Shown here piece by piece: positions 1-48,521 of a stretch of 64,000 nucleotides of DNA; position 1 is the stretch's first letter; each line of letters starts with the position of its first letter. Under the pieces are notes generated by a model. That model saw nothing but the letters and a program-made list of their open reading frames with translations. It did no database searches and was not told the DNA's origin. The DNA is from Heptranchias perlo (Eukaryota): assembly GCF_035084215.1 (NCBI RefSeq), contig NC_090327.1:50220001-50284000 (forward strand), in the 5' to 3' direction. The position numbers and the translations under genes are program-made.

Positions 1-356
1 TTCCTCCCTGGCCTTACTCCTCCCTCCAGACTTACATCTCTCAGAGAACTCTGCATTCCTCCAACTCTGGCCTCTTGTTCATCCTCTACTTCCTTTGTCC
101 CACCATTGGCGGCCGTACCTTTAGCCGTCTGGGCCCTAAGCTCTGGAGTTCCCTCCACAAACCTCTTCGCCTTGCTACCTCTCTCTCCTCCTTTAAGATG
201 CTCCTTAAAACCTACATCTTTGACCAAGCTTTTGGTCACCTCTGCTAATGTATCCTTCCTTGACTCAGTGTCAATTTTTGTATGATTATACTCCTGTGAA
301 GCGTCTTAGGGCATTTTACTATGTTAAAGGCACCATATACATGCAGGTTGTTGTTG
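1..356 (+). mobile_element. L2 LINE 3' end
   Basis: GPKLWSSLH-type C-terminus and tail ...ctatgttaaaggcaccatatacatgcaggttgttgttg; reverse-complement homolog of 43088-43640. Confidence 0.8.
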
Positions 357-3170: not shown

Positions 3171-3993
3171 ACATTATTTTTGTGGTGTGCATAAACGTAG
3201 CCGTAGTTCTGAAATTATTTAATAATATCACCTGATGAGGTTGTTTTCATTACTTTTATTGGTTTTATTTTCACTGTTTAAAAATTCTTATCTGTGAATT
3301 ATATATGTTACTATTGCAGATAGGTGATAATTTTATTTTAAATATCTATTTTTTGCATATTCTTCCTCATAAGCAGTTTGCAATGTGCCTTAATCCCTTT
3401 CAGTTTACATGGGATTTTTACTTTCCTTGTCCCTTCTTTTCTAAATATAAAAGATATCCCTTTGCTAGACACCTCATTCCTCTGGTGGCAGAACAAGCAA
3501 ATATGTGCTCTAAGAATTGTGTAACAACAGCTTTAGGCAACTATCCCATTCTGACTTTTATATAGAAACTTGAGAAAGGATGAGCGTTTTCAACATACTC
3601 TCCAGCACATTCACTATTAGTTATATCAACCCTTTTCTATTGCAGTTCTTTTGGACAGAAGGTTCAATATTATAATGCCAACACATATTTTTATTTGGAT
3701 CTTCTGTATTTGTAATAGCAATAGAAAGTTTCAAGCCTTGTGTTGTGACTATTTGAAACATGGGGTTGTTAAAAATTGTTTTAAATTTAGTTCACTTGTG
3801 CCTGGTGCTATTCCCATTCATTTACTTAGGTTTTCAAAATCATTAAGGAAGTTGGGCTCGGTACAAACTTTGATGTAACCCAAATGAAATTTTCAAAATT
3901 AAAACAGGAATTGGCAAAGTTGATTCCAGCAAATTGTTCATTATCGCAAAGGGCTCAAATACTGGGGAATATAAGTAAATTAAAGATTAGGGA

Positions 3994-4235
3994 TAAAATC
4001 AGAAAATACTGGAATTACTCAGCATGTCAGGCAGCATCTGTGGAGAAAGAAATAGAATTAACGTTTCAGATCGATGACCCTTCATCAGAACTGGCTGCCA
4101 GTTCTGATGAAGGGTCATTGACCTGAAACGTTAACTCTGTTTCTTTCTCCACTGTGCTGCCTGACCTGCTGAGTATTTCCAGCATTTCCGGTTTTTATTT
4201 CAGATTTCCAGCATCCGCAGTATTTTGCTTTTGAT
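3994..4235. mobile_element. Fold-back Penelope-derived mini-element, family A
   Basis: About 100-bp inverted arms centred on 4096 plus a one-sided tail of about 35 nt; 14-bp TSD ttaaaga(t/c)taggga at 3980-3993 and 4236-4249. Confidence 0.85.
4100..4136 (+). ncRNA. Minimal type-I hammerhead ribozyme-like motif (weaker mirror copy on minus strand, about 4056-4092)
   Basis: AGUU-CUGAUGA-A-GGGUC(AUU)GACCU-GAAA-CG-UU-AACU. Confidence 0.65.
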
Positions 4236-5363
4236 TTAAAGACTAGGGAGTAAGGAATAAGAAGGAAAGTTGGGCAGAAAAAAAGACTTGCGGAATAAAT
4301 TACCAGGGAAGGACATGGAAGTGGACAGTGTAAATAGGTTCAAGAGACAATAGGGTTGGTGTCATATTTACTTAGCTGTGTTTGATCATTTGTTACATGC
4401 ACACTATATTTCTTATGGAGTGTTCTTTAGTTTTTGAGCTGTGGCAACATGTGTGGATATGAATCTCTTGTGTTGTTTGAAGCAGCTGGTCTTCATCTGG
4501 TGTAAAATCCCTTCAGTAGCAAATCAATACCTCATGTGAAATTAGCTAAAGGATCTTTTGTCCTGAGTGACAGTATATTTTGTGTTGCGCTGTTTGCTTC
4601 TATGGTGTTTTATTTTACTTTTTCCCTTCAATTTTCTTCCCTTTCTCCTGAACATGTGCCAGTTTCCACTTCTGTAGTGTTTTTATTGGTTATTGCTAAT
4701 GCAAGCTGCAGCAGGAAGTGAAATTTTAAATTTAGTGCTTTCAAAGCTGAGAGCTAGTGTGTGTCGTACATGGGTTTCTAATTATGTAACAACTGCTTTG
4801 TTACAAAAATAACTCATTAGGAATAAATCAGATTAGTCTTGTGTGCACACCTGTGGATTTAAAAACAGAACAGATGCCAAGGAATATCTGAATGTCAGAA
4901 GGATTCATCTCAAATCAACCATCAAATCTCAGTTTGATTTTTTATAAATGTTTATGCATTATGTGATTGGTCTCTTGAAAATATCAGGCTTTCATCAGTT
5001 CTTTGCTCAAAATGTTCTATATAGCTATGTACTGAATGGGATATTTCAGCCCCTGGAATCATTTCACTTTTGACGTACATCCAGTATCATTATGAAATTT
5101 GTATGTTGAAATTATTTTCCAAACTTAGTCTGACTTGAACTGCATAGAGATTTAGTGTATGCTAATACATTAAAAAATGGATGATTTGCTATCAATGATA
5201 AAAAAAAATCCATGTGAATATCAGAGCTTACCACACTGCAGAATTGAACCTCATACCCCATAACCATACAGTACATACAATTTTGCAGGACTATTTACCA
5301 TCACACATATGAATACAAAGTCACCTTCATGTCCCTTAGTATTCCTAGTTCTTGTGGGCGGTT

Positions 5364-12959: not shown

Positions 12960-14687
12960 TGAAGGAGCATCAAATGAGGCCTTATGGGTTGAGCTAAAGA
13001 ACAAAAAAGGGGCAGTCACACTACTGGGAGTGTACTATAGACCCCCAAACAGTCAGAGGGAGATAGAGGAGCAAATATGTAGGCACATTTCTGAGAAGTG
13101 CAAAAACAATAGGGCAGTAATAGTAGGGGATTTCAACTACCCTAATATTAACTGGGATACAAACAGTGTGAATGGCATAGAGGGCGCAGAATTCTTAAAT
13201 TGCATACAGAAGAATTTTTTTAGCCAGTGTATAGCAAGCCCAACGAGAGGCGGGGGGTGCAGTTCTGGATTTAGTTCTAGGAAATGAAGAGGGGCAGGTG
13301 GAAGAAGTAGCAGTGGGAGAGCATTTTGGTGGTAGTGATCATAATACAGTTAGTTTTAGCATAGTTATGGAAAAGGACAAAAAAAGACAGAGCAGCAGTT
13401 AAAGTTTTCAATTGGGGAAAGGCCAATTTTACTAAACTGAGAAGTGATTTAGCAGAAGCAAACTAGAAACAGCTACTTGAAGTCAGTGTCAGAGCAGTGG
13501 GAGACATTCAAAGGGGTGATTCAAGGGGTTAAGGGTAAACATGTTCCAACAAAGAAAAAGGGAGGGGCTGCCAAATCTAGAGGCCCCTGGATGTCAAGAA
13601 GCATTCAGGGTAAGATAAGGCAGAAAAAGAAAGCCTGTAATAGACACTGGGAACTCAATAATATGGAAAGCTTAGAGGAGTATACAAAGTGCAGGGGTGA
13701 AGTTAAAAAGGAAATTGGGAAAGGCAAAGAGAGAGCATGAAAAAATATTAGCAAGTAAAATCAAAGAAAACCAAAAGATGTCTTATAAATACATAAAGAG
13801 CAAGAGGATAACTAAGGAAAGAGTAGGGCCTATTAGAGACCAAAAAAGTAAACTATATGTGGGTATGGTTCTTAATGAATACTTTGTGTCTGTCTTCACA
13901 AAGGAGAGGGATGATATAGGGATTGAAGTTAAGAAGAAGTGTGAAATATTGGATGGGATAAACATAGTGGGAGAGGAAGTATTAAGGGGATTAGCATCTT
14001 TGAAAGTAGATAAATCACAAGGGCCGGATGAAATGTATCCCAGGCTATTAAAAGAAGCCAGGGAGGAAATAGCGGAGGCTTTAACAATCATTTTCCAAAC
14101 TTCACTGGATACAGGCGTAGTGCCGGAGGATTGGAGGACTGCTAACGTTGTACCATTGTTTAAAAAGGGAGCAAAGGATAGACCGAGTAATTACAGGCCA
14201 GTCAGCCTAACCTCAGTGGTGGGCAAATTATTGGAATCAATTCTGAGGGACAGGATAAACTGTCACTTAGAAAGGCACGGACTAATCAAGGACAGTCAGC
14301 ACGGATTTGTTAAGGAGAGGTCGTGTCTGACTAACTTGATTGAATTTTCGAGGAGGTGACCAGAAGGATCGATGAGGGTAGCGCAATTGATGTAGTCTAC
14401 ATGGATTTTAGCAAGGCTTTTGACAAGGTCCCACGTGACAGATTGGTCAAAAAAGTAAAGGTCAAGGGAATGTGGCAAATTGGATCCAAAATTGGTTCAG
14501 TGGCAGGAAGCAAAGGGTAATGGTCAACAGGTGTTTTTGCGCCGGCTGTTTCTAGTGGGGTGCCGCAGGGCTCGGTACTAGGTCCTTTGCTTTTTGTGGT
14601 ATTCATTAATGATTTGGGCTTAAACGTAGGGAGGCTGGGTGGCTCGTTTCTCAGCCGGTGCAGACACGATGGGCTGAATGGCCTTCT
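12960..14687 (+). mobile_element. Degenerate CR1 with internal deletion
   Basis: EN (YRPPNS, GDFN) to RT (PQGSVLGP) fragments, then a jump to about 50 bp of 3' UTR. Confidence 0.92.
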
Positions 14688-16535
14688 TAACCACCTTATC
14701 TACCTGTCCTGCTACCTTCAGGGATCTGTGGACATGTACTCCAAGGTCCCTCACTTCCTCGACACCTTTCAGTATCCTCCCATTTACTGTGTAGTTCCTT
14801 GCCTTGTTTGCCCTCCCCAAATGCATTACCTCACATTTCTCCAGATTGAATTCCGTTTGCCACTTTTCTGCCCACCTGACTAGTCCATTGATATCTTCCT
14901 GCAGTCTACAGCTTTCCTCCTCACTATCAACCACACAACCAATTTTTGTGTCATCTGCAAACTTCTTAATCATACCCCCTACATTTAAGTCCTAATCATT
15001 AATAAATACCACAAAAAGCAAGGGACCTAGTACTGAGCCCTGCAGAACCCCACTGGAAACATCCTTCCAGGCACAAAAACATCGACCTTTACCCTTTGCT
15101 TCCTGCCACTGAGCCAATTTTGGATCCAACTTGCCACTTTCCCTTGGATCCCATGAGCTTGTACTTTTTTGACCAGTCTGCCATGTGGGACCTTGTCAAA
15201 AACCTTGCTAAAATCCATGTAGACTACATCAATTGCGCTACCCTCATCTACCCTCCTTGATACCGCCTCAAAAAATTCAATCAAGTTAGTCAGACACGAC
15301 CTTCCCTTAACAAATCCACGATGACTGTCCTTGATTACTCCGTGCCTTTCTAAGTGACGGTTTATCCTGTCCCTCAGAATTGATTCCAATAATTTGCCCT
15401 CCACCGAGGTTAAACTGACTGGCCTATAATTACTTGGTCTATCCCTCGCTCCCTTTTTAAATAATGGTACAATGTTAGCAGTCCTCCAATCCTCCGGCAC
15501 CACGCCTGTATCCAGTGAGGATTGGAAAATGATGGTCAGAACCTCCGCTATTTCCTCCCTTGTTTCTTTTAACAGCCTGGGATACATTTCATCCGGCCCT
15601 TGTGATTTATCTACTTTCAAAGATGCTAATCCCCTTAATACTTCCTCTCTCACTATGTTTAGCCCATGCAATATTTCACACTCCTCCTTAACTACAATGT
15701 CTGCATCGTCCCTCTCTTTTGTGAAGACAGACACAAAGTATTCATTAAGAACCATAGCAACATCTTCCGCCTCCATACATAGGTTATCTTTTTGGTCGCT
15801 AATAGGCCCTACTCTTTCCTTAGTTATCCTCTTACTCGTAATGTATTTTTAAAACATCTTTGGGTTTTCCTTCATTTTACTTGCCAATATTTTTTCATGC
15901 CCTCTCTTTGCTTTCCTAATTTCCTTTTTAATTTCACCCCTGCACTTTCTATACTCCTCTAGACTTTCTGCAGTATTGAGTTCTCGGTGTCTGACATAAG
16001 CTTTCCTTTTCTGCCTTATCCTACCCTGTATGCTCCTTGACATCCAGTGGGCTCTAGAATTGCCAGTCCCACCCTATTTCTTTGTGGGAACATGTTGATT
16101 CTGAATCTCTTGGACCTCTGAACTCCTTCAACCTGCCCAGCTTCATTTCCTAAAACTAAATCCAGAACTGCCCCCTCTCTTGTTGGGCTTGCTACCTACT
16201 GGCTAAAAAAAGTTCTCCTGAAAATGCAATTTAAGAATTTTGTGCCCTCTATGCCTTTCACACTGTTTGTATCCCAGTTAATATTAGAGTAGTTGAAATC
16301 CCGTATTACTGCCCTATTGTTTTTGCAGTTCTCAGGAATTTGCCTAAATATTTGCTCTTCTATCCCCCTCTGACTGTTTGGGGGTCTACAGTACACTCCC
16401 AGTAGTGCAACTGCCCCTATTTTGTTCCTTAGCTCAACCCATATGGCCTCATTTGATGTTCCTTCTAACTTATCATCCCTACTCACAGCTGTAATTGTTT
16501 ATTTAATCAAAATTGCCACCCCACCTCCTTAACTG
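14681..16535 (-). mobile_element. Degenerate CR1, inverted partner of 12960-14687, 3' end lost
   Basis: ORF fragments 16196-16486, 15027-15776, 14620-14973 closely parallel the plus copy. Confidence 0.92.
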
Positions 16536-21118: not shown

Positions 21119-22301
21119 GATTCCAGCGCAATCGTCCAAACCAGTGCAAAAGATCAGGGAATTTTAAACGCGAATTATGCCCAAAACCACTGGCGTTCGT
21201 GTTTTCCACGATCTTTTACGCCGGTTTAAGATTCAATTCGCCCGGATCAGGTTGACATTGTGAGTTTCTACCAATTGCGCTGGTTCAGGAAAGCTCTTTC
21301 AAATGAAAACACCCTGTTCTAACTTGGCAAGTTTCCAAAAATGAAACTATGTACACCTTAATAGTGCTCATTGGGATTATGGCTAATTCGGTATATAAAA
21401 AAACTGCAGACAATAAAAATGTAACTACATTCTACAGAAACAGGATAATCTCATAATACAATACATTATACAACCCAATCTCACTAGCCAGTCACAACAT
21501 AGGAATTTGACACTCACTTGATGGCATCAATTGATTATTATTGATATAAATATGACTATTGTTATTTGAATTACAGGATATTGATTTTAGTTTGTTTGCT
21601 ATTATTAGTGACACCTCCATTCAGGGGGGCACTTTTAGATTTTCTGACAGGATTGGGTTTTCCTCAACGTCACTACTTAATGGTCTGTACAAAACAGAGC
21701 AACCAACCAACCATTCAGAAAAAAACTGGATTATTACCTGACGACATAACACGTTATTACATTTAAAACAACCGACGAGGGTACACGACATTCTGACATC
21801 ATTAGGAGACCTCTGATCATCAGATATAATCTGCTTTTTGTGTTTAATCCAACACCTGTTGTATCACAATGAGCCTGGGAGGGAGATTAATTTGTGTCAC
21901 ATCATTACATACTGGTCCAAAATAGGCAAGAGGGGTGATCCCAAAAGAAAATGGGCGGGTTCCTATTTATCTGATTCAGCATAACTTTAGCAGTGATTTT
22001 CTGAAAGCACACTATAATCAGATCTGCTCTGCTCTGCTCCCCCCACCCCCCCCAACATTTTTGGTTCATCTAAGGTGGCATTTTAAATGTGCAATGGTGC
22101 TATTCTGTTTTTCACTAAAGCCACAAAACCTTCCGTATATACATATATATGTTGTCTATTTTGTGGCACCTACAGACACAAACTGTCAAAGCTTATACTT
22201 TATTATATCATTTCTTAGAAGTGAATTTGGGTGGTCAATCCAGTTCTCAGTGGTCTAAACAATTTTCAGCATAATTCTAATACCACAACTCAAATTAATT
22301 T

Positions 22302-22500
22302 GGAGATGCCGGTGATGGACTGGGGTTGACAATTGTAAACAATTTTACAACACCAAGTTATAGTCCAACAAATTTATTTTAAATTCCACAAGCTTTCAGA
22401 GGTTTCCTCCTTCACCTGACGAAGGAGGAAGCCTCCGAAAGCTTGTGGAATTTAAAATAAATTTGTTGGACTATAACTTGGTGTTGTAAAATTGTTTACA
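22302..22500. mobile_element. Fold-back Penelope-type mini-element, family B, copy 1
   Basis: About 80-bp inverted arms with a one-sided tail of about 30 nt; 13-bp direct repeat caaattaatttgg at 22291-22303 and 22499-22511. Confidence 0.85.
22411..22449 (+). ncRNA. Minimal type-I hammerhead ribozyme-like motif
   Basis: UUCAC-CUGACGA-A-GGAGG(AAG)CCUCC-GAAA-GC-UU-GUGGA. Confidence 0.65.
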
Positions 22501-22619
22501 AATTAATTTGGGCTGAGCAGTTATTTCTCCTCAACAACTCTGAATTCTCTATAAAACCAAAGTCCAGTTTACTTAGATTGTAGTAAAAATTTCAAGAAGG
22601 CATCTCAGAGAAAATTAGG

Positions 22620-24050: not shown

Positions 24051-24809
24051 AATACATGAACCTCTTTAAATATAAAACTGTATTAACTGTAAACAGTTGC
24101 TGCTTTGTGCTACAACTCTTATATATTTACCCATTGTGTGTGCATATACTTGTCATACACTACTGCTGAATGGAGGCGTAGTTCAATTTGCATACCGTGT
24201 ACACAGTAAATAATATACCCAAGATAGCTGGTAATTGGAAAATATATCACTTGTGACAGCAGACTCACTTGCAATTAGAATGCTTGTTAATTAGTAGGTC
24301 TGCTATTTATTAGTGGTGTATTTTCTATACTTTCATACACACTATTTATACATGTCCTCTTTAAATACACACCAAAGATCCATAAAGAATATGCAGTACT
24401 GTGTTATATTTTGGAGGGAGAGTTAGGTGTTATGTTTAAGGGGTTGGGATAGTGTTGCTATCCCTCTTGTCCATGGTGCTACGGGAGCTGTACTTCCACC
24501 TCACTTGTTATTTGTGCTGTTTTGGAGATGATTTCCTATCTCTAGCACCTGATGCTGTGTTATATTTGAAGGGGCAGAATAGTATTTCCATCTTACCCCT
24601 AGTATTCTGTTATCTTTGAGGGATTGGGGTGTCATGTCACTACCTCACTTGTTACTTGTGGTGTTTTGAAGGTGATTTCCTACCCCTTGCTCATGATATG
24701 TATTATTACTTTTATTCAGAGGTAAAACTGTTCTTGCCTCTCTGGCCCTTGGTGTAATGATATATTCCCAGGGATGGGATAGTTGCATTCATGCCTTTCT
24801 TGTCATTGG

Positions 24810-25322
24810 TGTACCATATACTCAGAGGGGAGAGGTAGTTGTGTTCCTGTCTCTCCTGCTCTGGTGTACCGTATACTGTATACTCAGAGGGGAGAGGTAG
24901 TTGTGTCCCTATCTCTCCTGCCCTGGTGTGCTGTATACTCGGAAGGGAGGAGAAATTGTGTCCCTGTCTCTCCTGCTCTGGTGTACTGTATACTCGGAGG
25001 GGAGAGGTAGTTGTGTCCCTGTCTCTCCTGCTCTGGTGTACTGTATACTCGGAGGGGAGAGGTAGTTGTGTCCCTGTCTCTCCTGCCCGTGGTGCACTGT
25101 ATACTCGGAGGGGAGAGGTAGTTGTGTCCCTGTCTCTCCTGCCCGTGGTGCACTGTATACTCGGAGGGGAGAGGTAGTTGTGTCCCTGTCTCTCCTGCCC
25201 TGGTGTACTGTATACTCGGAGGGGAGAGGTAGTTGTGTCCCTGTCTCTCCTGCCCGTGGTGCACTGTATACTCGGAGGGGAGAGGTAGTTGTGTCCCTGT
25301 CTCTCCTGCCCTGGTGCTGTAT
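24810..25322. repeat. 55/56-bp minisatellite, about 9 copies, with degenerate copies extending to about 24395
   Basis: Unit actgtatactcggaggggagaggtagttgtgtccctgtctctcctgccc(g)tggtg(c/t); period measured from tcctgcc at 25081, 25137, 25193, 25248, 25304. Confidence 0.95.
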
Positions 25323-33879: not shown

Positions 33880-36800
33880 GCACCTGGGCAGGGCCGGGAC
33901 CGCTGTCCTAGGAGGAGTGTTTGCTAGTGCTGTTGGGGAGGGTTTAAACTAAAGTGGCAGGGGGTTGGGAACCTGAGCAGGGAGACAGAGGAAAGCGTAA
34001 CAGGAAGGGACAGAAGGTATGGAGTAAAAGGTAAAGTGTTAAAAAAGGAAAAAGCAGGAACTAAGCGTCACAAAACAGATTTGAAAGTTCTTTATCTGAA
34101 TGCACGTAGCATTTGTAACAAAATGGACGAGTTAACGGCACAAATAACTACGTATGGGTATGATCTTGTGGCCATTACAGAAACATGGCTGCAGGCTGAC
34201 AACGACTGGGAATTAAATATGCCAGGGTATTTAACAATCAGGAAGGACAGGCAGGAAGGAAGGGGAGGTGGGGTGGCTATGTTAATAAAGGAAGGAATCA
34301 CTGTAATACAGATAAATGATATTGGGACAAAGCATCAAGATAATGAAACAGTTTGGGTAGAGATAAGGAATAATAAGGGGAAAAAAACACTAGTGGGCGT
34401 AGTATATAGGCCTCCTAATAGTTGCAACTCTGCTGGAAGAAGTATTAATCAGGAAATAGTCGGGGCATGTAATAAGGGAACAGCTATAATTATGGGGGAT
34501 TTTAACTATCATATTAACTGGACAAATCAAATTGGGCAGAGCAGCCTTGAGGAAGAGTTCATTGAGTGCATCAGGGATGGATTTCTTGAGCAGTATGTAA
34601 CTGATCCTACAAGGGGGCAGGCAACCCTGGACCTGGTCCTGTGTAATGAGTCAGGATTAATTAATAATGTCCTAGTTAAGGATCCCCTTGGAACGAGCGA
34701 CCACAACATGGTTGAATTCCATATCCAATTAGAGGGTGAGAAGGTTGATTCTCAAACAAGCGTACTGAGCTTGAATAAAGGAGACTATGATGGTATGAGA
34801 GCGGAATTGATTAAAGTGGACTGGGAAAATAGATTAAAGGGTAAGACGGTACATGAGCAGTGGTGTTCATTTAGGGAGTTATTTTACAACTTTCAAAATA
34901 AATATATTCCACTGAGGAAAAAAGGGTGTAAAATAAATGACAGCCATCCGTGGCTAAGTAAAGAAATTAAGGATAGTATCCGACTAAAAACAAGGACATA
35001 TAAGGTAGCCAAACTTAGTGGGAGGATAGAAGATTGGGAATTCTTCAAAAGACAGCAAAAAGTAACGAAAGGATTGATTAAGAAAGGGAAGTTAGATTAT
35101 GAAAAGAAATTAGCAAAAAATATAAAAACAGATAGCAGGAGTTTCTATAGTTATATAAAAAGAAAAAGGGTGGCGAAGGCAAACGTAGGTCCCTTAGAGG
35201 ATGAGACCGGGAAATTAATGGTGGGAAACATGGAGATGGCAAAAATGCTGAACAAATATTTTGTTTCAGTCTTTACGGTAGAGGATACTAAGAATATCCC
35301 AACACTGGACAAACAGGGGGCTATACGGGGGGAGGAGCTAAATACGATTAAAATCACTCAGGAGATGGTACTCAGTAAAATAAAGGGACTCAAAGCGGAT
35401 AAATCCCCTGGACCTGATGGCTTACATCCTAGGGTCTTGAGGGAAGTGGCAATAGGGATTGTGGATGCTTTGGTGATAGTTTTCCAAAATTCCCTGGACT
35501 CAGGAGAGGTCCCGGCAGATTGGAAAACTGCTAATGTAACACCGTTATTTAAAAAGGGTAGTAGGCAGAAGGCTGGAAATTATAGGCCAGTTAGCCTAAC
35601 ATCTGTGGTGGGTAAAATTTTGGAGTCTATTATTAAGGAGACAGTAACGGAACATTTAGATAAACATAATTTAATAGGACAAAGTCAGCATGGCTTTATG
35701 AAGGGGAAGTCATGTCTGACAAATTTGCTTGAGTTCTTTGAGGATATAATGTACAGGGTGGATAAAGGGGAACCAGTGGACGTAGTGTATTTAGACTTCC
35801 AGAAGGCATTCGACAAGGTGCCACATAAAAGATTATTACTTAAGATAAAAAATCACGGGATTGGGGGTAATATTCTGGCATGGGTGGAGGATTGGTTATC
35901 GAACAGGAGGCAGAGAGTTGGGATAAATGGTTCATTCTCGGACTGGCAACCAGTAAACAGTGGTGTTCCACAGGGGTCAGTGCTGGGTCCCCAACTCTTT
36001 ACAATCTATATTAACGATTTGGAGGAGGGGACCGAGTGCAACATATCAAAGTTTGCAGATGATACAAAGATGGGAGGGAAAGTAGAGAGTGAGGAGGACA
36101 TAAAAAACCTGCAAGGGGATATAGACAGGCTGGGTGAGTGGGCGGAGATTTGGCAGATGCAATATAATATTGGAAAATGTGAGGTTATTCACTTTGGCAG
36201 GAAAAATCAGAGAGCAAGTTATTTTCTTAATGGCGAGAGACTAGAAAGTACTGCAGTACAAAGGGATCTGGGGGTCCTAGTACAAGAAAATCAAAACGTT
36301 GGTATGCAGGTGCAGCAGGTGATCAAGAAGGCCAACGGAATGTTGGCTTTTATTGCTAGGGGGATAGAATATAAAAACAGGGAGGTATTGCTGCAGTTAT
36401 ATAAGGTATTGGTGAGACCGCACCTGGAATACTGCATACAGTTTTGGTGTCCACACTTAAGAAAAGACATACTTGCTCTCGAGGCAGTACAAAGAAGGTT
36501 CACTCGGTTAATCCCGGGGATGAGGGGGTGGACATATGAGGAGAGGTTGAGTAGATTGGGACTCTACTCATTGGAGTTCAGAAGAATGAGAGGCGATCTT
36601 ATTGAAACATATAAGATTGTGAAGGGGCTTGATCGGGTGGATGCAGTAAGGATGTTCCCAAAGATGGGTGAAACTAGAACTAGGGGGCATAATCTTAGAA
36701 TAAGGGGCTGCTCTTTCAAAACTGAGATGAGGAGAAACTTCTTCACTCAGAGGGTGGTAGGTCTGTGGAATTTGCTGCCCCAGGAAGCTGTGGAAGCTAC

Positions 36801-37088
36801 ATCACTAGATAAATTTAAAACAGAAATGGACAGTTTTCTAGAAGTAAAGGGAATTAGGGGTTATGGGGAGTGGGCAGGAAATTGGACATGAAGCTGAGTT
36901 CGGATCGGTCAATGCCCTGTGGGTGGCGGAGAGGGCCCAGGGGCTGAGTGGCCGGATCCTGCTCCTACTTCGTGTGTTCTTTAGTTTTGTGGTTGGGATC
37001 AGATCAGCCATGATCTTATTGAATGGCGGAGCAGGCTCGAGGGGCCGATTGGCCTACTCCTGCTCCTATTTCTTATGTTCTTATGTTC
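33880..37088 (+). mobile_element. Young CR1 LINE, 5'-truncated within ORF1, with complete ORF2 and 3' tail
   Basis: ORF1 C-terminus (HLGRAGTAVLGGVFASAVGEGLN*), then ORF2, then (tcttatgt)n tail; TSD taaaggt at 33873-33879 and 37089-37095. Confidence 0.95.
34036..36891 (+). CDS. CR1 ORF2: APE endonuclease plus reverse transcriptase, uninterrupted 951 aa
   Basis: EN motifs NARS, ITETW, GDFN, LDLVL, SDH; RT motifs YRPVSLTS, QHGF, LDFQKAFD, GVPQGSVLG, FADD. Confidence 0.93.
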   Translation: MLKKEKAGTKRHKTDLKVLYLNARSICNKMDELTAQITTYGYDLVAITETWLQADNDWELNMPGYLTIRKDRQEGRGGGVAMLIKEGITVIQINDIGTKHQDNETVWVEIRNNKGKKTLVGVVYRPPNSCNSAGRSINQEIVGACNKGTAIIMGDFNYHINWTNQIGQSSLEEEFIECIRDGFLEQYVTDPTRGQATLDLVLCNESGLINNVLVKDPLGTSDHNMVEFHIQLEGEKVDSQTSVLSLNKGDYDGMRAELIKVDWENRLKGKTVHEQWCSFRELFYNFQNKYIPLRKKGCKINDSHPWLSKEIKDSIRLKTRTYKVAKLSGRIEDWEFFKRQQKVTKGLIKKGKLDYEKKLAKNIKTDSRSFYSYIKRKRVAKANVGPLEDETGKLMVGNMEMAKMLNKYFVSVFTVEDTKNIPTLDKQGAIRGEELNTIKITQEMVLSKIKGLKADKSPGPDGLHPRVLREVAIGIVDALVIVFQNSLDSGEVPADWKTANVTPLFKKGSRQKAGNYRPVSLTSVVGKILESIIKETVTEHLDKHNLIGQSQHGFMKGKSCLTNLLEFFEDIMYRVDKGEPVDVVYLDFQKAFDKVPHKRLLLKIKNHGIGGNILAWVEDWLSNRRQRVGINGSFSDWQPVNSGVPQGSVLGPQLFTIYINDLEEGTECNISKFADDTKMGGKVESEEDIKNLQGDIDRLGEWAEIWQMQYNIGKCEVIHFGRKNQRASYFLNGERLESTAVQRDLGVLVQENQNVGMQVQQVIKKANGMLAFIARGIEYKNREVLLQLYKVLVRPHLEYCIQFWCPHLRKDILALEAVQRRFTRLIPGMRGWTYEERLSRLGLYSLEFRRMRGDLIETYKIVKGLDRVDAVRMFPKMGETRTRGHNLRIRGCSFKTEMRRNFFTQRVVGLWNLLPQEAVEATSLDKFKTEMDSFLEVKGIRGYGEWAGNWT

Positions 37089-37214
37089 TAAAGGTCACTG
37101 CAGCCCAGAATCTTTTTGCCTGGGGCTTCTTCTAGTCTGCTACTGGGGACATTGGTAACATCAACCAATCTATAGTTCGTACAAGGATAAAGCAGATGAC
37201 TTGTGTTGTGTACC

Positions 37215-38833
37215 ATAAGAACATAAGAAATAGGAGCAGGAGTAGGCCAATCGGCCCCTCGAGCCTGCTCCGCCATTCAATAAGATCATGGCTGATCTGA
37301 TCCTTACCTCAAATCTAAAGAACACAAGAAGTAGGAGCAGGACCCGGCCACTCAGCCCCTGGGCCCGCTCCACCACCCACAGGGCCTTGACCGATCCGAA
37401 CTCAGCTTCATGTCCAATTTCCTGCCCGCTCCCCGTTACCCCTAATTCCCTTTACTTCGCGGAAACTGTCTATTTCTGTTTTAAATTTATTTAATGATGT
37501 AGCTTCCACAGCTTCCTGGGGCAGCAAATTCCACAGACCTACTACCCTCTGAGTGAAGAAGTTACTCCTCATCTCAGTTTTGAAAGAGCAGCCCCTTATT
37601 CTAAGATTATGCCCCCTAGTTCTAGTTTCACCCATCCTTGGGAACATCCTTACTGCATCCACCCGATCAAGCCCCTTCACAATCTTATATGTTTCAATAA
37701 GATCGCCTCTCATTCTTCTGAACTCCAATGAGTAGAGTCCCAATCTACTCAACCTCTCCTCATATGTCCACCCCCTCATCCCCGGGATCAACCGAGTGAA
37801 CCTTCTTTGTACTGCCTCGAGAGCAAGTATGTCTTTTCTTAAGTATGGACGCCAAAACTGTATGCAGTATTCCAGCAATACCTCTCTGTTTTTATATTCT
37901 ATCCCCCTAGCAATAAAAGCCAACATTCCGTTGGCCTTCTTGATCAGCTGCTGCACCTGCATACTAACTTTTTGATTTTCTTGCACTCGGACCCCCAGAT
38001 CCCTTTGTACTGCAGTACTTTCCAGTTTCTCGCCATTAAGATAATAACTTGCTCTCTGATTTTTCCTGCCAAAGTGCATATCCTCACATTTTCCAACATT
38101 GTATTGCATCTGCCAAATCTCCGCCCACTCACTCAGCCTGTCTATATCCCCTTGTAGGTTTTTTATGTCCTCCTCACTCTCTACTTTCCCTCCCATCTTT
38201 GTATCATCTGCAAACTTTGATATGTTACACTCGGTCCCCTCCTCCAAATCGTTAATATAGATTGTAAAGAGTTGGGGACCCAGCACCGACCCCTGTGGAA
38301 CACCACTGGCTACTGGTTGCCAGTCCGAGAATGAACCATTTATCCCAACTCTCTGCTTCCTGTTAGATAACCAATCCTCCACCCATGCCAGAATATTACC
38401 CCCAATCCAGTTATTCTTTATCTTGAGCAATAATCTTTTATGTGGCACCTTGTCGAATGCCTTCTGGAAGTCTAAATACACTACGTCCACTGGTTCCCCT
38501 TTATCCACCCTGTACGTTATGTCCTCAAAGAACTCAAGCAAATTTGTCAGACATGACTTCCCCTTCATAAAGCCATGCTGACTTTGTCCTATTAAATTAT
38601 GTTTATCTAAATGTTCCATTACTGTCTCCTTAATAATAGACTCCAAAATTTTACCCACCACAGATGTTAGGCTAACTGGTCTATAATTTCCAGCCTTCTG
38701 CCTACTACCCTTTTTAAATAAGGGTGTTACATTAGCAGTTTTCCAATCTGCCGGGACCTTTGCTGAGTCCAGAGAATTTTGGAAAATTATTACCAAAGCA
38801 TCCACAATCCCTACTGCCACTTCCCTCAAGACC
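37215..38833 (-). mobile_element. CR1 of the same subfamily, 5'-truncated and inverted relative to 33880-37088
   Basis: 481-aa ORF nearly identical to the ORF2 RT half; in-frame 33-bp deletion (QLYKVLVRPHL); same double 3' tail. Confidence 0.95.
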
Positions 38834-47950: not shown

Positions 47951-48128
47951 AGAATGATTTTAAACTGCCATCATATGGTTTTTCCCCACAAGTCATTTGA
48001 AGAATCTTTCTGCACTCTTAAATTCTGGAATATGATTAAAATTTTAGATACATTTTGTCTTTGTGTGGTATTTAGTTGCAGAGATGGTTATAATGGATAG
48101 GTATCTCAGCACTGGTTTCACTGATATA

Positions 48129-48349
48129 TTGTAAACAATTTTACAACACCAAGTTATAGTCCAGCAATTTTATTTTAAATTCACAAGCTTTCGGAGGCTT
48201 TCTCCTTCCTCAGGTGAACGATGTGGGAAGGAGGAAGGAGAAAGCCTCCGAAAGCTTGTGAATTTAAAATAAAATTGCTGGACTATAACTTGGTGTTGTA
48301 AAATTGTTTACAATTGTCAACCCCAGTCCATCACCGGCATCTCCACATC
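48129..48349. mobile_element. Fold-back Penelope-type mini-element, family B, copy 2 (opposite orientation)
   Basis: Same arms and tail as 22302-22500; 12-bp TSD ttcactgatata at 48117-48128 and 48350-48361. Confidence 0.87.
48180..48218 (-). ncRNA. Minimal type-I hammerhead ribozyme-like motif
   Basis: UUCAC-CUGAGGA-A-GGAG(AAAGC)CUCC-GAAA-GC-UU-GUGAA. Confidence 0.65.
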
Positions 48350-48521
48350 TTCACTGATATAGTTATTGAGGTCATTAAAATGACCATGATTAAAAGTTTA
48401 ATGCAGGCAAGACAATAAGAAAACAACACTGAATTCTAGTAAAGCGTCAGTCGATGAAATTAAGTTTTTGTGTGCAAGATGATAACAGTTGAGAGAGAGG
48501 CTTCAGAAACTCACTCCACTA

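Follow-up and report, generated by a model that had tools for sequence, protein, structure and literature searches.

An ORF-less, hammerhead-bearing hairpin of a Penelope-like retrotransposon in Heptranchias perlo, and evidence bearing on probable insertion by twin priming

Introduction

Endonuclease-bearing Penelope-like elements (PLEs) leave insertion units in which a 5′-truncated pseudo-LTR (pLTR) is inverted, a tail of 30–40 bp is present on one side only, and the target is duplicated; the parent encodes a reverse transcriptase (RT) with a C-terminal GIY-YIG domain, and the pLTR carries promoter-like motifs (PMC8557442, PMC3846280). In the same accounts the inversion is attributed to self-priming, and the tail to resolution by the endonuclease. 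Transcription starts within the pLTR have been reported for Penelope and Chlamys-3 (PMC8557442; PMC2377424), with the promoter in PMC2377424 described as TATA-less. Metazoan PLEs also carry minimal hammerhead motifs, whose conserved traits include a nucleotide that separates position 9 from 10.1, pairing of G10.1 with C11.1 and a palindromic stretch at 15.2-16.2, and for which cleavage was reported to be absent for a monomer and low for dimers (PMC4209133). A PLE protein cuts and extends both target strands, with two RT start sites that bound the tail and with uncleaved RNA as its main substrate (PMC11167929); inverted insertions are absent from the main-text discussion of that paper. Finally, non-LTR retrozymes are non-coding, hammerhead-bearing and PLE-derived, and are found as head-to-tail tandems (bioRxiv 10.64898/2026.07.22.740005).

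On the way in which PLEs produce inverted ends, and on the role of their hammerhead in vivo, a young and very large family can supply evidence that is countable. The insertion considered here, a 221-base hairpin at 22291..22511 of a 64,000-nucleotide window (the whole stretch of DNA that was analysed), belongs to such a family. It is an ORF-less insertion of the pLTR end of an abundant Penelope-like retrotransposon, and it brings together a target duplication, a tail on one side, arms in inverted orientation and a hammerhead of the minimal type. Every one of these structural traits is already known for PLEs (PMC8557442, PMC3846280, PMC8969392), and the focal copy itself is ordinary, since its class, inverted layout, tail and extra-A hammerhead have all been published. 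Compared with the described PLE units, the layout is the same and the parental tail of 37 nt falls within the known range, whereas the commonest product here lacks an ORF and measures only ~150–220 bp, and the duplications are 12–13 bp rather than the 8, 9 and 10 bp given for Adineta examples (PMC8557442, PMC3846280). What the family adds is countable evidence for two priming events, for a near-fixed stagger, and for arm ends that lie at the likely transcription start and not at the ribozyme cut. Among titles and abstract openings, outside supplements, Repbase and subscription papers, we found no proposal of twin priming or of a start-site edge for PLEs.

Results

The focal hairpin

The two arms of the focal hairpin (22333-22413 and 22421-22501) are identical at 79 of 81 positions and enclose a 7-nt loop (22414-22420); both mismatches (22398 and 22403) are one-sided transitions in the left, tail-bearing arm. 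The predicted fold has an energy of −146 kcal/mol (z −23.6), a value matched by none of 200 shuffles. The layout claimed in an earlier note on this DNA, with target duplication, inverted arms, one-sided tail and hammerhead, holds in all its parts (Table 1); 2 nt on each side of the 13-nt duplication are common to the element ends. A scan against Rfam with E up to 1 returned no hammerhead family for this hairpin, only matches to microRNA-precursor hairpins below their gathering scores. The focal copy is likely to be a dead end.

Table 1. Coordinates of the focal insertion, its hammerhead motif and two further hairpins in the window
Feature	Position	Strand	Remarks
Left target-site duplication	22291..22303	.	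Longest exact match 13 nt; overlaps element end
Right target-site duplication	22499..22511	.	Exact copy of 22291-22303
PLE tail, antisense, ~31 nt, left side only	22302..22332	-	By comparison with parent element
Tail-bearing arm, a copy of the pLTR end	22333..22413	-	Stops within hammerhead core, without CUGA
Tail-less arm, a copy of the pLTR end	22411..22501	+	Includes loop 22414-22420; 5′ side 10 nt longer than tailed arm
Microhomology TTC (3 nt) at joint	22411..22413	.	Common to both arms
Minimal type I hammerhead with extra A and palindromic AAGCUU	22411..22449	+	Predicted cut after 22444
Hammerhead stem I	22411-15 with 22445-49	+	From sequence
Hammerhead core CUGACGA	22416-22	+	From sequence; extra A at 22423
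Hammerhead stem II	22424-28 with 22432-36	+	From sequence
Hammerhead GAAA	22437-40	+	From sequence; U17 at 22444
Second hairpin of focal family, different subfamily	48117..48361	-	12-bp duplication, right-side tail, hammerhead on minus strand, C3 at 48213
Hairpin taken as family A	3980..4248	+	Older, from a different PLE lineage; both strands carry hammerheads; each arm starts 6 nt before C3

The hammerhead motif

This hammerhead is the minimal motif usual for the family, and selection maintains it in the source elements. Among 207 arms chosen for having at most four mismatches to the motif, G5, A6, G8, A9, the extra A, A13, A14 and A15.1 showed no variant in three or more loci, while the free position N7 was G in 176 arms and C in 29, and variation at G12 was confined to a CpG; the counts for C3 and U4 are blurred by truncation joints. 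When 19 rows were aligned (17 from the focal family and two from family A, a lineage described below), 95% of cells were paired, against 25–54% in slid controls. Two-sided changes were seen in eight of 13 pairs, mostly contributed by the two family A rows; within the focal family there are A-U/G-C swaps in stem II, and changes in that stem mostly keep the pair. A conserved RNA structure, with a core better conserved than its flanks, had been predicted from sequence alone, and the prediction is supported by this invariant core and by the covarying stems when nearby flanks serve as the comparison.

The extra A is not a new variant but the published hallmark of PLE minimal hammerheads (PMC4209133). 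The motif shares with those hammerheads the extra nucleotide between 9 and 10.1, the G10.1-C11.1 pair, the palindrome at 15.2-16.2, a short helix I and the lack of a monomeric helix III, and differs in helix II, which has 5 bp here and 7–8 bp in the Schistosoma families (PMC4209133). In our computations the hammerhead fold of the focal copy costs 43 kcal/mol more than the hairpin. Because of this cost, the hammerhead is predicted to be locked within the hairpin and the copy not to cleave, so that the self-cleavage after 22444 that the earlier note put forward for assay is not expected from the copy's own transcript. An extra A at the same position occurs in a natural viroid hammerhead, that of CChMVd; on this point PMC4209133 refers only to an earlier study. 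One-sided CpG decay is frequent in stem II and at G12 (L009, L023, L095, L148 and window position 22398), which indicates that the arms were not fully homogenised after insertion.

Parent element and abundance

In the 3.25-Gb genome 65,028 sites match a 28-mer of the arm exactly, and no site matches its reversed control. Copies that extend further upstream run into an ORF. One locus (L067) reads, in order, duplication, inverted pLTR with tail, pLTR, ORF, tail-less pLTR and duplication; the parental tail ends immediately before the ATG of the ORF. Six loci were examined for long frames, and these yielded three intact natural frames of 891 aa and one of 887 aa. In an 891-aa frame Pfam detects RVT_1 above its cut-off (E 1.8e-10) and GIY-YIG just below it (E 2.7e-4; 21.6 bits against a cut-off of 22.6), the VVY..YIG motif of the latter being legible directly. 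The single ORF thus places the RT before a C-terminal GIY-YIG domain, as in endonuclease-bearing PLEs. A search of solved-structure sequences gave no match with E up to 1.

The 891-aa protein has a C-x4-C-x2-C linker before the nuclease, and the same linker is found in a family A frame (L265). A CX2-5CxxC linker before GIY-YIG is a mark of the Neptune and Nematis clades (PMC8557442), and by its predicted protein the parent is a PLE with a linker of the Neptune/Nematis type. Our tentative preference is for Neptune over Nematis as its clade, given that Neptune and Poseidon are the widespread groups in vertebrates according to the retrozyme preprint (bioRxiv 10.64898/2026.07.22.740005).

As the earlier note had it, the window contains no parent ORF: tblastn with an 813-aa parent frame against the 64 kb found no match with E up to 0.01. 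The course it proposed, extension of arm matches across the genome, led to the RT and GIY-YIG parent (L067 and the 891-aa frames), in agreement with its reading of the hairpins as hammerhead-bearing products of a second PLE lineage. It had further named a DNA transposon with fixed-length duplications as the parent that would overturn that reading; the duplications are indeed nearly fixed in length, but the parent is a retroelement. A MITE or other DNA transposon was rejected on the grounds that the parent encodes an RT, the ends are made asymmetric by the tail, and the joints vary.

pLTRs arise from partial tandems, either direct or inverted, as at L067 and at the tandem copies L143, L158 and L160. 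The last three are head-to-tail tandems of at least two full units, and some of them also have a full-length partner in inverted orientation; these tandems are likely sources of read-through RNA.

Sister insertions

Insertions were sampled with an end pattern that is independent of the inner joint. The first 100 of its 4,396 matches yielded 90 insertions, from which one duplicate was dropped to leave a main sample of 89; this sample required C or G as the first flank base and, like a second sample, was drawn from the first 48 Mb of a single contig. The end statistics exclude the 30 best BLAST copies and the copies chosen for reaching further upstream, both of which are biased with respect to the joint. 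The 89 insertions comprise 40 abutting hairpins, six gapped ones, 20 single short arms and 23 long arms, the last of which exceed the 450-nt references and were left unscored.

A tail is present on one arm only in 39 of the 40 abutting hairpins. The ends fall at two fixed points, one with the tail and one without it, which lie 37 nt from each other. Target duplications flank 38 of the 39 tailed hairpins and measure 12 bp in 29, 13 bp in eight and 15 bp in one; these lengths, from exact matching, include bases common to the element ends, and exact matching was used in place of a mismatch-tolerant count that gave 13–16 bp. Paired arms have 49 non-majority sites in common and differ at 26 of 3,046 sites (0.85%), whereas shuffled arm pairs differ at 3.3%, with 2.2% the lowest value in 1,000 shuffles. 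This low difference implies that both arms come from one source. In 18 of the 39 tailed hairpins, the focal one included, the tail-less arm extends upstream of the other by 3 nt or more, so that in these neither arm can be a full copy of the other; in eight hairpins it is the tailed arm that extends further.

The one clearly discordant arm pair, a candidate for arms derived from two different RNAs (L219), which accounts for nine of the 26 differences, has no duplication and adjoins another arm; it is probably nested and was not used. The joints at L182, L246, L259, L234 and L164 contain short repeated pieces of the arm end or tail, resembling repeated template jumps. Several pairs of insertions occupy the same or nearly the same target inside other repeats (L184/L206, L187/L249, L196/L223, L190/L209, L089/L147 and L157/L212), and these recurring targets suggest a sequence preference of the endonuclease.

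Where the arms end

Short-arm ends of the main sample pile up behind a TATA-like box. Counted from the first base of the box, 56 of 111 ends fall at TATA+27..36 and only five at +17..26 (binomial P 6e-12). The corresponding numbers are 19 and six (in the 10 nt before) for the 56 short arms of the second sample, which includes a tandemly duplicated region and was de-duplicated by flank alone, and seven and one (P 0.07) for 22 short arms of family A, whose box was chosen by eye. No arm ends within 1 nt of the ribozyme cut in the main sample (0/111), the second sample (0/56) or family A (0/22). Three of the 56 arms in the second sample do stop 2 nt beyond the cut, so that a small class made from cleaved RNA is possible. 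In genome-wide pattern searches seven hairpins had their centre at the cut, against 17 for a control site lying 6 nt upstream; at the edge, a single haplotype alone accounted for 80.

The spacing from box to hammerhead varies by ~6 nt between subfamilies, which separates the two landmarks. Among ends in the 30 nt before C3, those at C3-20..-14 make up two of 27 where the TATA-C3 spacing is 38–41 nt and 21 of 51 where it is 44–47 nt (Fisher P 0.002), indicating that the edge moves with the TATA box and not with the hammerhead. Only this edge test favours the TATA frame, as median end positions do not (C3 frame P 0.11, TATA frame P 0.007). A transcription start ~30 nt behind the TATA box is the textbook spacing. 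From this motif spacing, the arm ends are likely to mark the transcription start of the element.

The focal subfamily has a degenerate box (TTCAAAT or TTAAAAT), and the focal arms end behind the edge, at about TATA+39 and +49, at the TTC microhomology. Of 12 upstream pLTRs that continue into the ORF, one starts at TATA+30, eight upstream of the box, one at +13 and two far downstream, so that ORF-bearing copies appear to derive mostly from longer RNAs. End clusters at TATA-320 and, for family A, at TATA-199 were dismissed as artefacts of reference length.

Other copies in the window

A scan of the 64 kb for the hammerhead core plus stem II recovers only the two copies of the focal family, and a looser scan adds family A. 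The second focal-family copy, which does not appear in the earlier note, is 86% identical to the focal element and lies in the opposite orientation (Table 1). Blastn between the focal element and the family A hairpin gave no match with E up to 10, in keeping with the claim that the two lack clear similarity outside the core. They had also been called unrelated, and this is not the case for their parents: family A loci hold broken frames of the same PLE type as the focal parent, both parents have Neptune/Nematis-type features, and the two longest matches between their proteins show 29–30% identity over ~318 aa. The focal family and family A are, on these predicted proteins, two separate lineages of one kind of PLE.

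Discussion

We consider it probable that these hairpins are formed when the two 3′ ends of one staggered cut each prime a copy of the uncleaved leader of the element's RNA, and the two copies are joined head to head. The element's protein would cut both strands ~12 nt apart. Priming would then begin at the end of the tail for one 3′ end and at the internal site for the other, which is what the anole element does in vitro. Both cDNAs would run off the 5′ end of the RNA, because a putative transcription start within the pLTR is only ~100 and 140 nt away from these sites. The 3′ ends of the cDNAs would be trimmed and would anneal at a few complementary bases (TTC in the focal copy), after which repair would fill both strands. 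Weighing against twin priming are the 20 of 89 insertions with a single short arm, and the shared variants, which would also fit a snap-back or later conversion between the arms.

The closest precedent is Poseidon of Anolis carolinensis, which likewise has two end points that bound the tail and apparently inserts from uncleaved RNA (PMC11167929). Its ORF starts inside the hammerhead and its RT sites lie in the ORF, whereas here the hammerhead and tail precede the ATG, and the focal parent, unlike the anole element, carries a Zn-finger-like linker as found in Neptune and Nematis. In L1 twin priming, cDNA is primed from both target strands, and the product is an inversion with microhomology. The second L1 primer anneals at an internal site that varies, and each arm covers a different part of the element; here the sites are fixed, 37 nt apart, and the same stretch is copied twice.

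A different origin for the second arm is that a single cDNA snaps back by self-priming, possibly on an antisense template, and is copied into it. Self-priming is proposed in the Discussion of PMC3846280, and it would explain why variants are nearly always common to both arms; the joints, at which the gap ranges from −8 to +33 nt, overlap by 1–8 nt in 19 of 40 hairpins, as a snap-back needs. Yet the tailed arm is the shorter one at the joint in 18 of 39 hairpins, the focal copy among them, so that there each arm holds sequence absent from the other, and a self-copy would also need to fall short by exactly 37 nt, at a fixed site. We therefore regard a snap-back as unlikely. Twin priming might also operate with ends that are set by stalling or switching of the RT at an RNA structure before the hammerhead, or by a splice junction. 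A hairpin is predicted just before the edge in one subfamily, an intron of D. virilis ends at helix I (PMC4209133), and family A has a pyrimidine tract and an AG at its edge. But no common stem ends at the edge in 15 folded references, the edge tracks the TATA spacing and not the hammerhead, the focal family has no AG there, and in family A five arms begin at the AG or slightly before it instead of after it, which leaves such an explanation of the ends rather improbable.

That the hairpin spreads as a unit, like a MITE or a retrozyme, is very unlikely. The focal seam does recur in near-identical copies, as do identical seams at the edge; the joints, by contrast, vary widely over the range given above, the focal seam is found on several arm haplotypes, and arm lengths are continuous up to full elements. 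Retrozymes, moreover, are defined as tandem units (bioRxiv 10.64898/2026.07.22.740005). The non-LTR retrozymes of that preprint resemble the present insertions in being non-coding, hammerhead-bearing and PLE-derived, but they are head-to-tail tandems, whereas these are single head-to-head insertions with varied joints; a retrozyme was rejected for both copies of the window on this ground. Self-cleavage of the template RNA by the hammerhead, as the event that sets the ends, is refuted as the main route and hardly credible at all: the conserved core and stems, the three arms of one sample that stop 2 nt beyond the cut, and one hairpin genome-wide that is joined exactly at the cut are outweighed by the lack of ends within 1 nt of the cut in all three samples, and by hairpins centred there being fewer than at the control site.

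Twin priming of uncleaved leader RNA, our preferred reading, may have a wider meaning, for and against which we see the case as evenly balanced. It could be the normal insertion route of these PLEs, in which a pair of proteins makes a cut of fixed 12-nt stagger and two cDNAs are begun at two set sites on one uncleaved RNA. The leader of the mRNA would be the main decoy, because the set priming sites lie so close to the transcription start; tens of thousands of stubs would record the start of each subfamily to the base, and the hammerhead would almost never cut the RNA that is copied.

A few other features were noticed. At 35433-38833 the window holds a LINE-like inverted repeat with arms of ~1.6 kb that are 96% complementary and 128 nt apart, their repeat-ended 3′ tails facing the centre, and at 12961-16465 there is an older, more decayed large inverted repeat of the same sort. 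A tandem array with a unit of ~55 nt occupies 24696-25311. Outside the window, at G000:C3:86.25-86.61 Mb, the family A motif recurs every ~24–30 kb, pointing to a large tandem segmental array.
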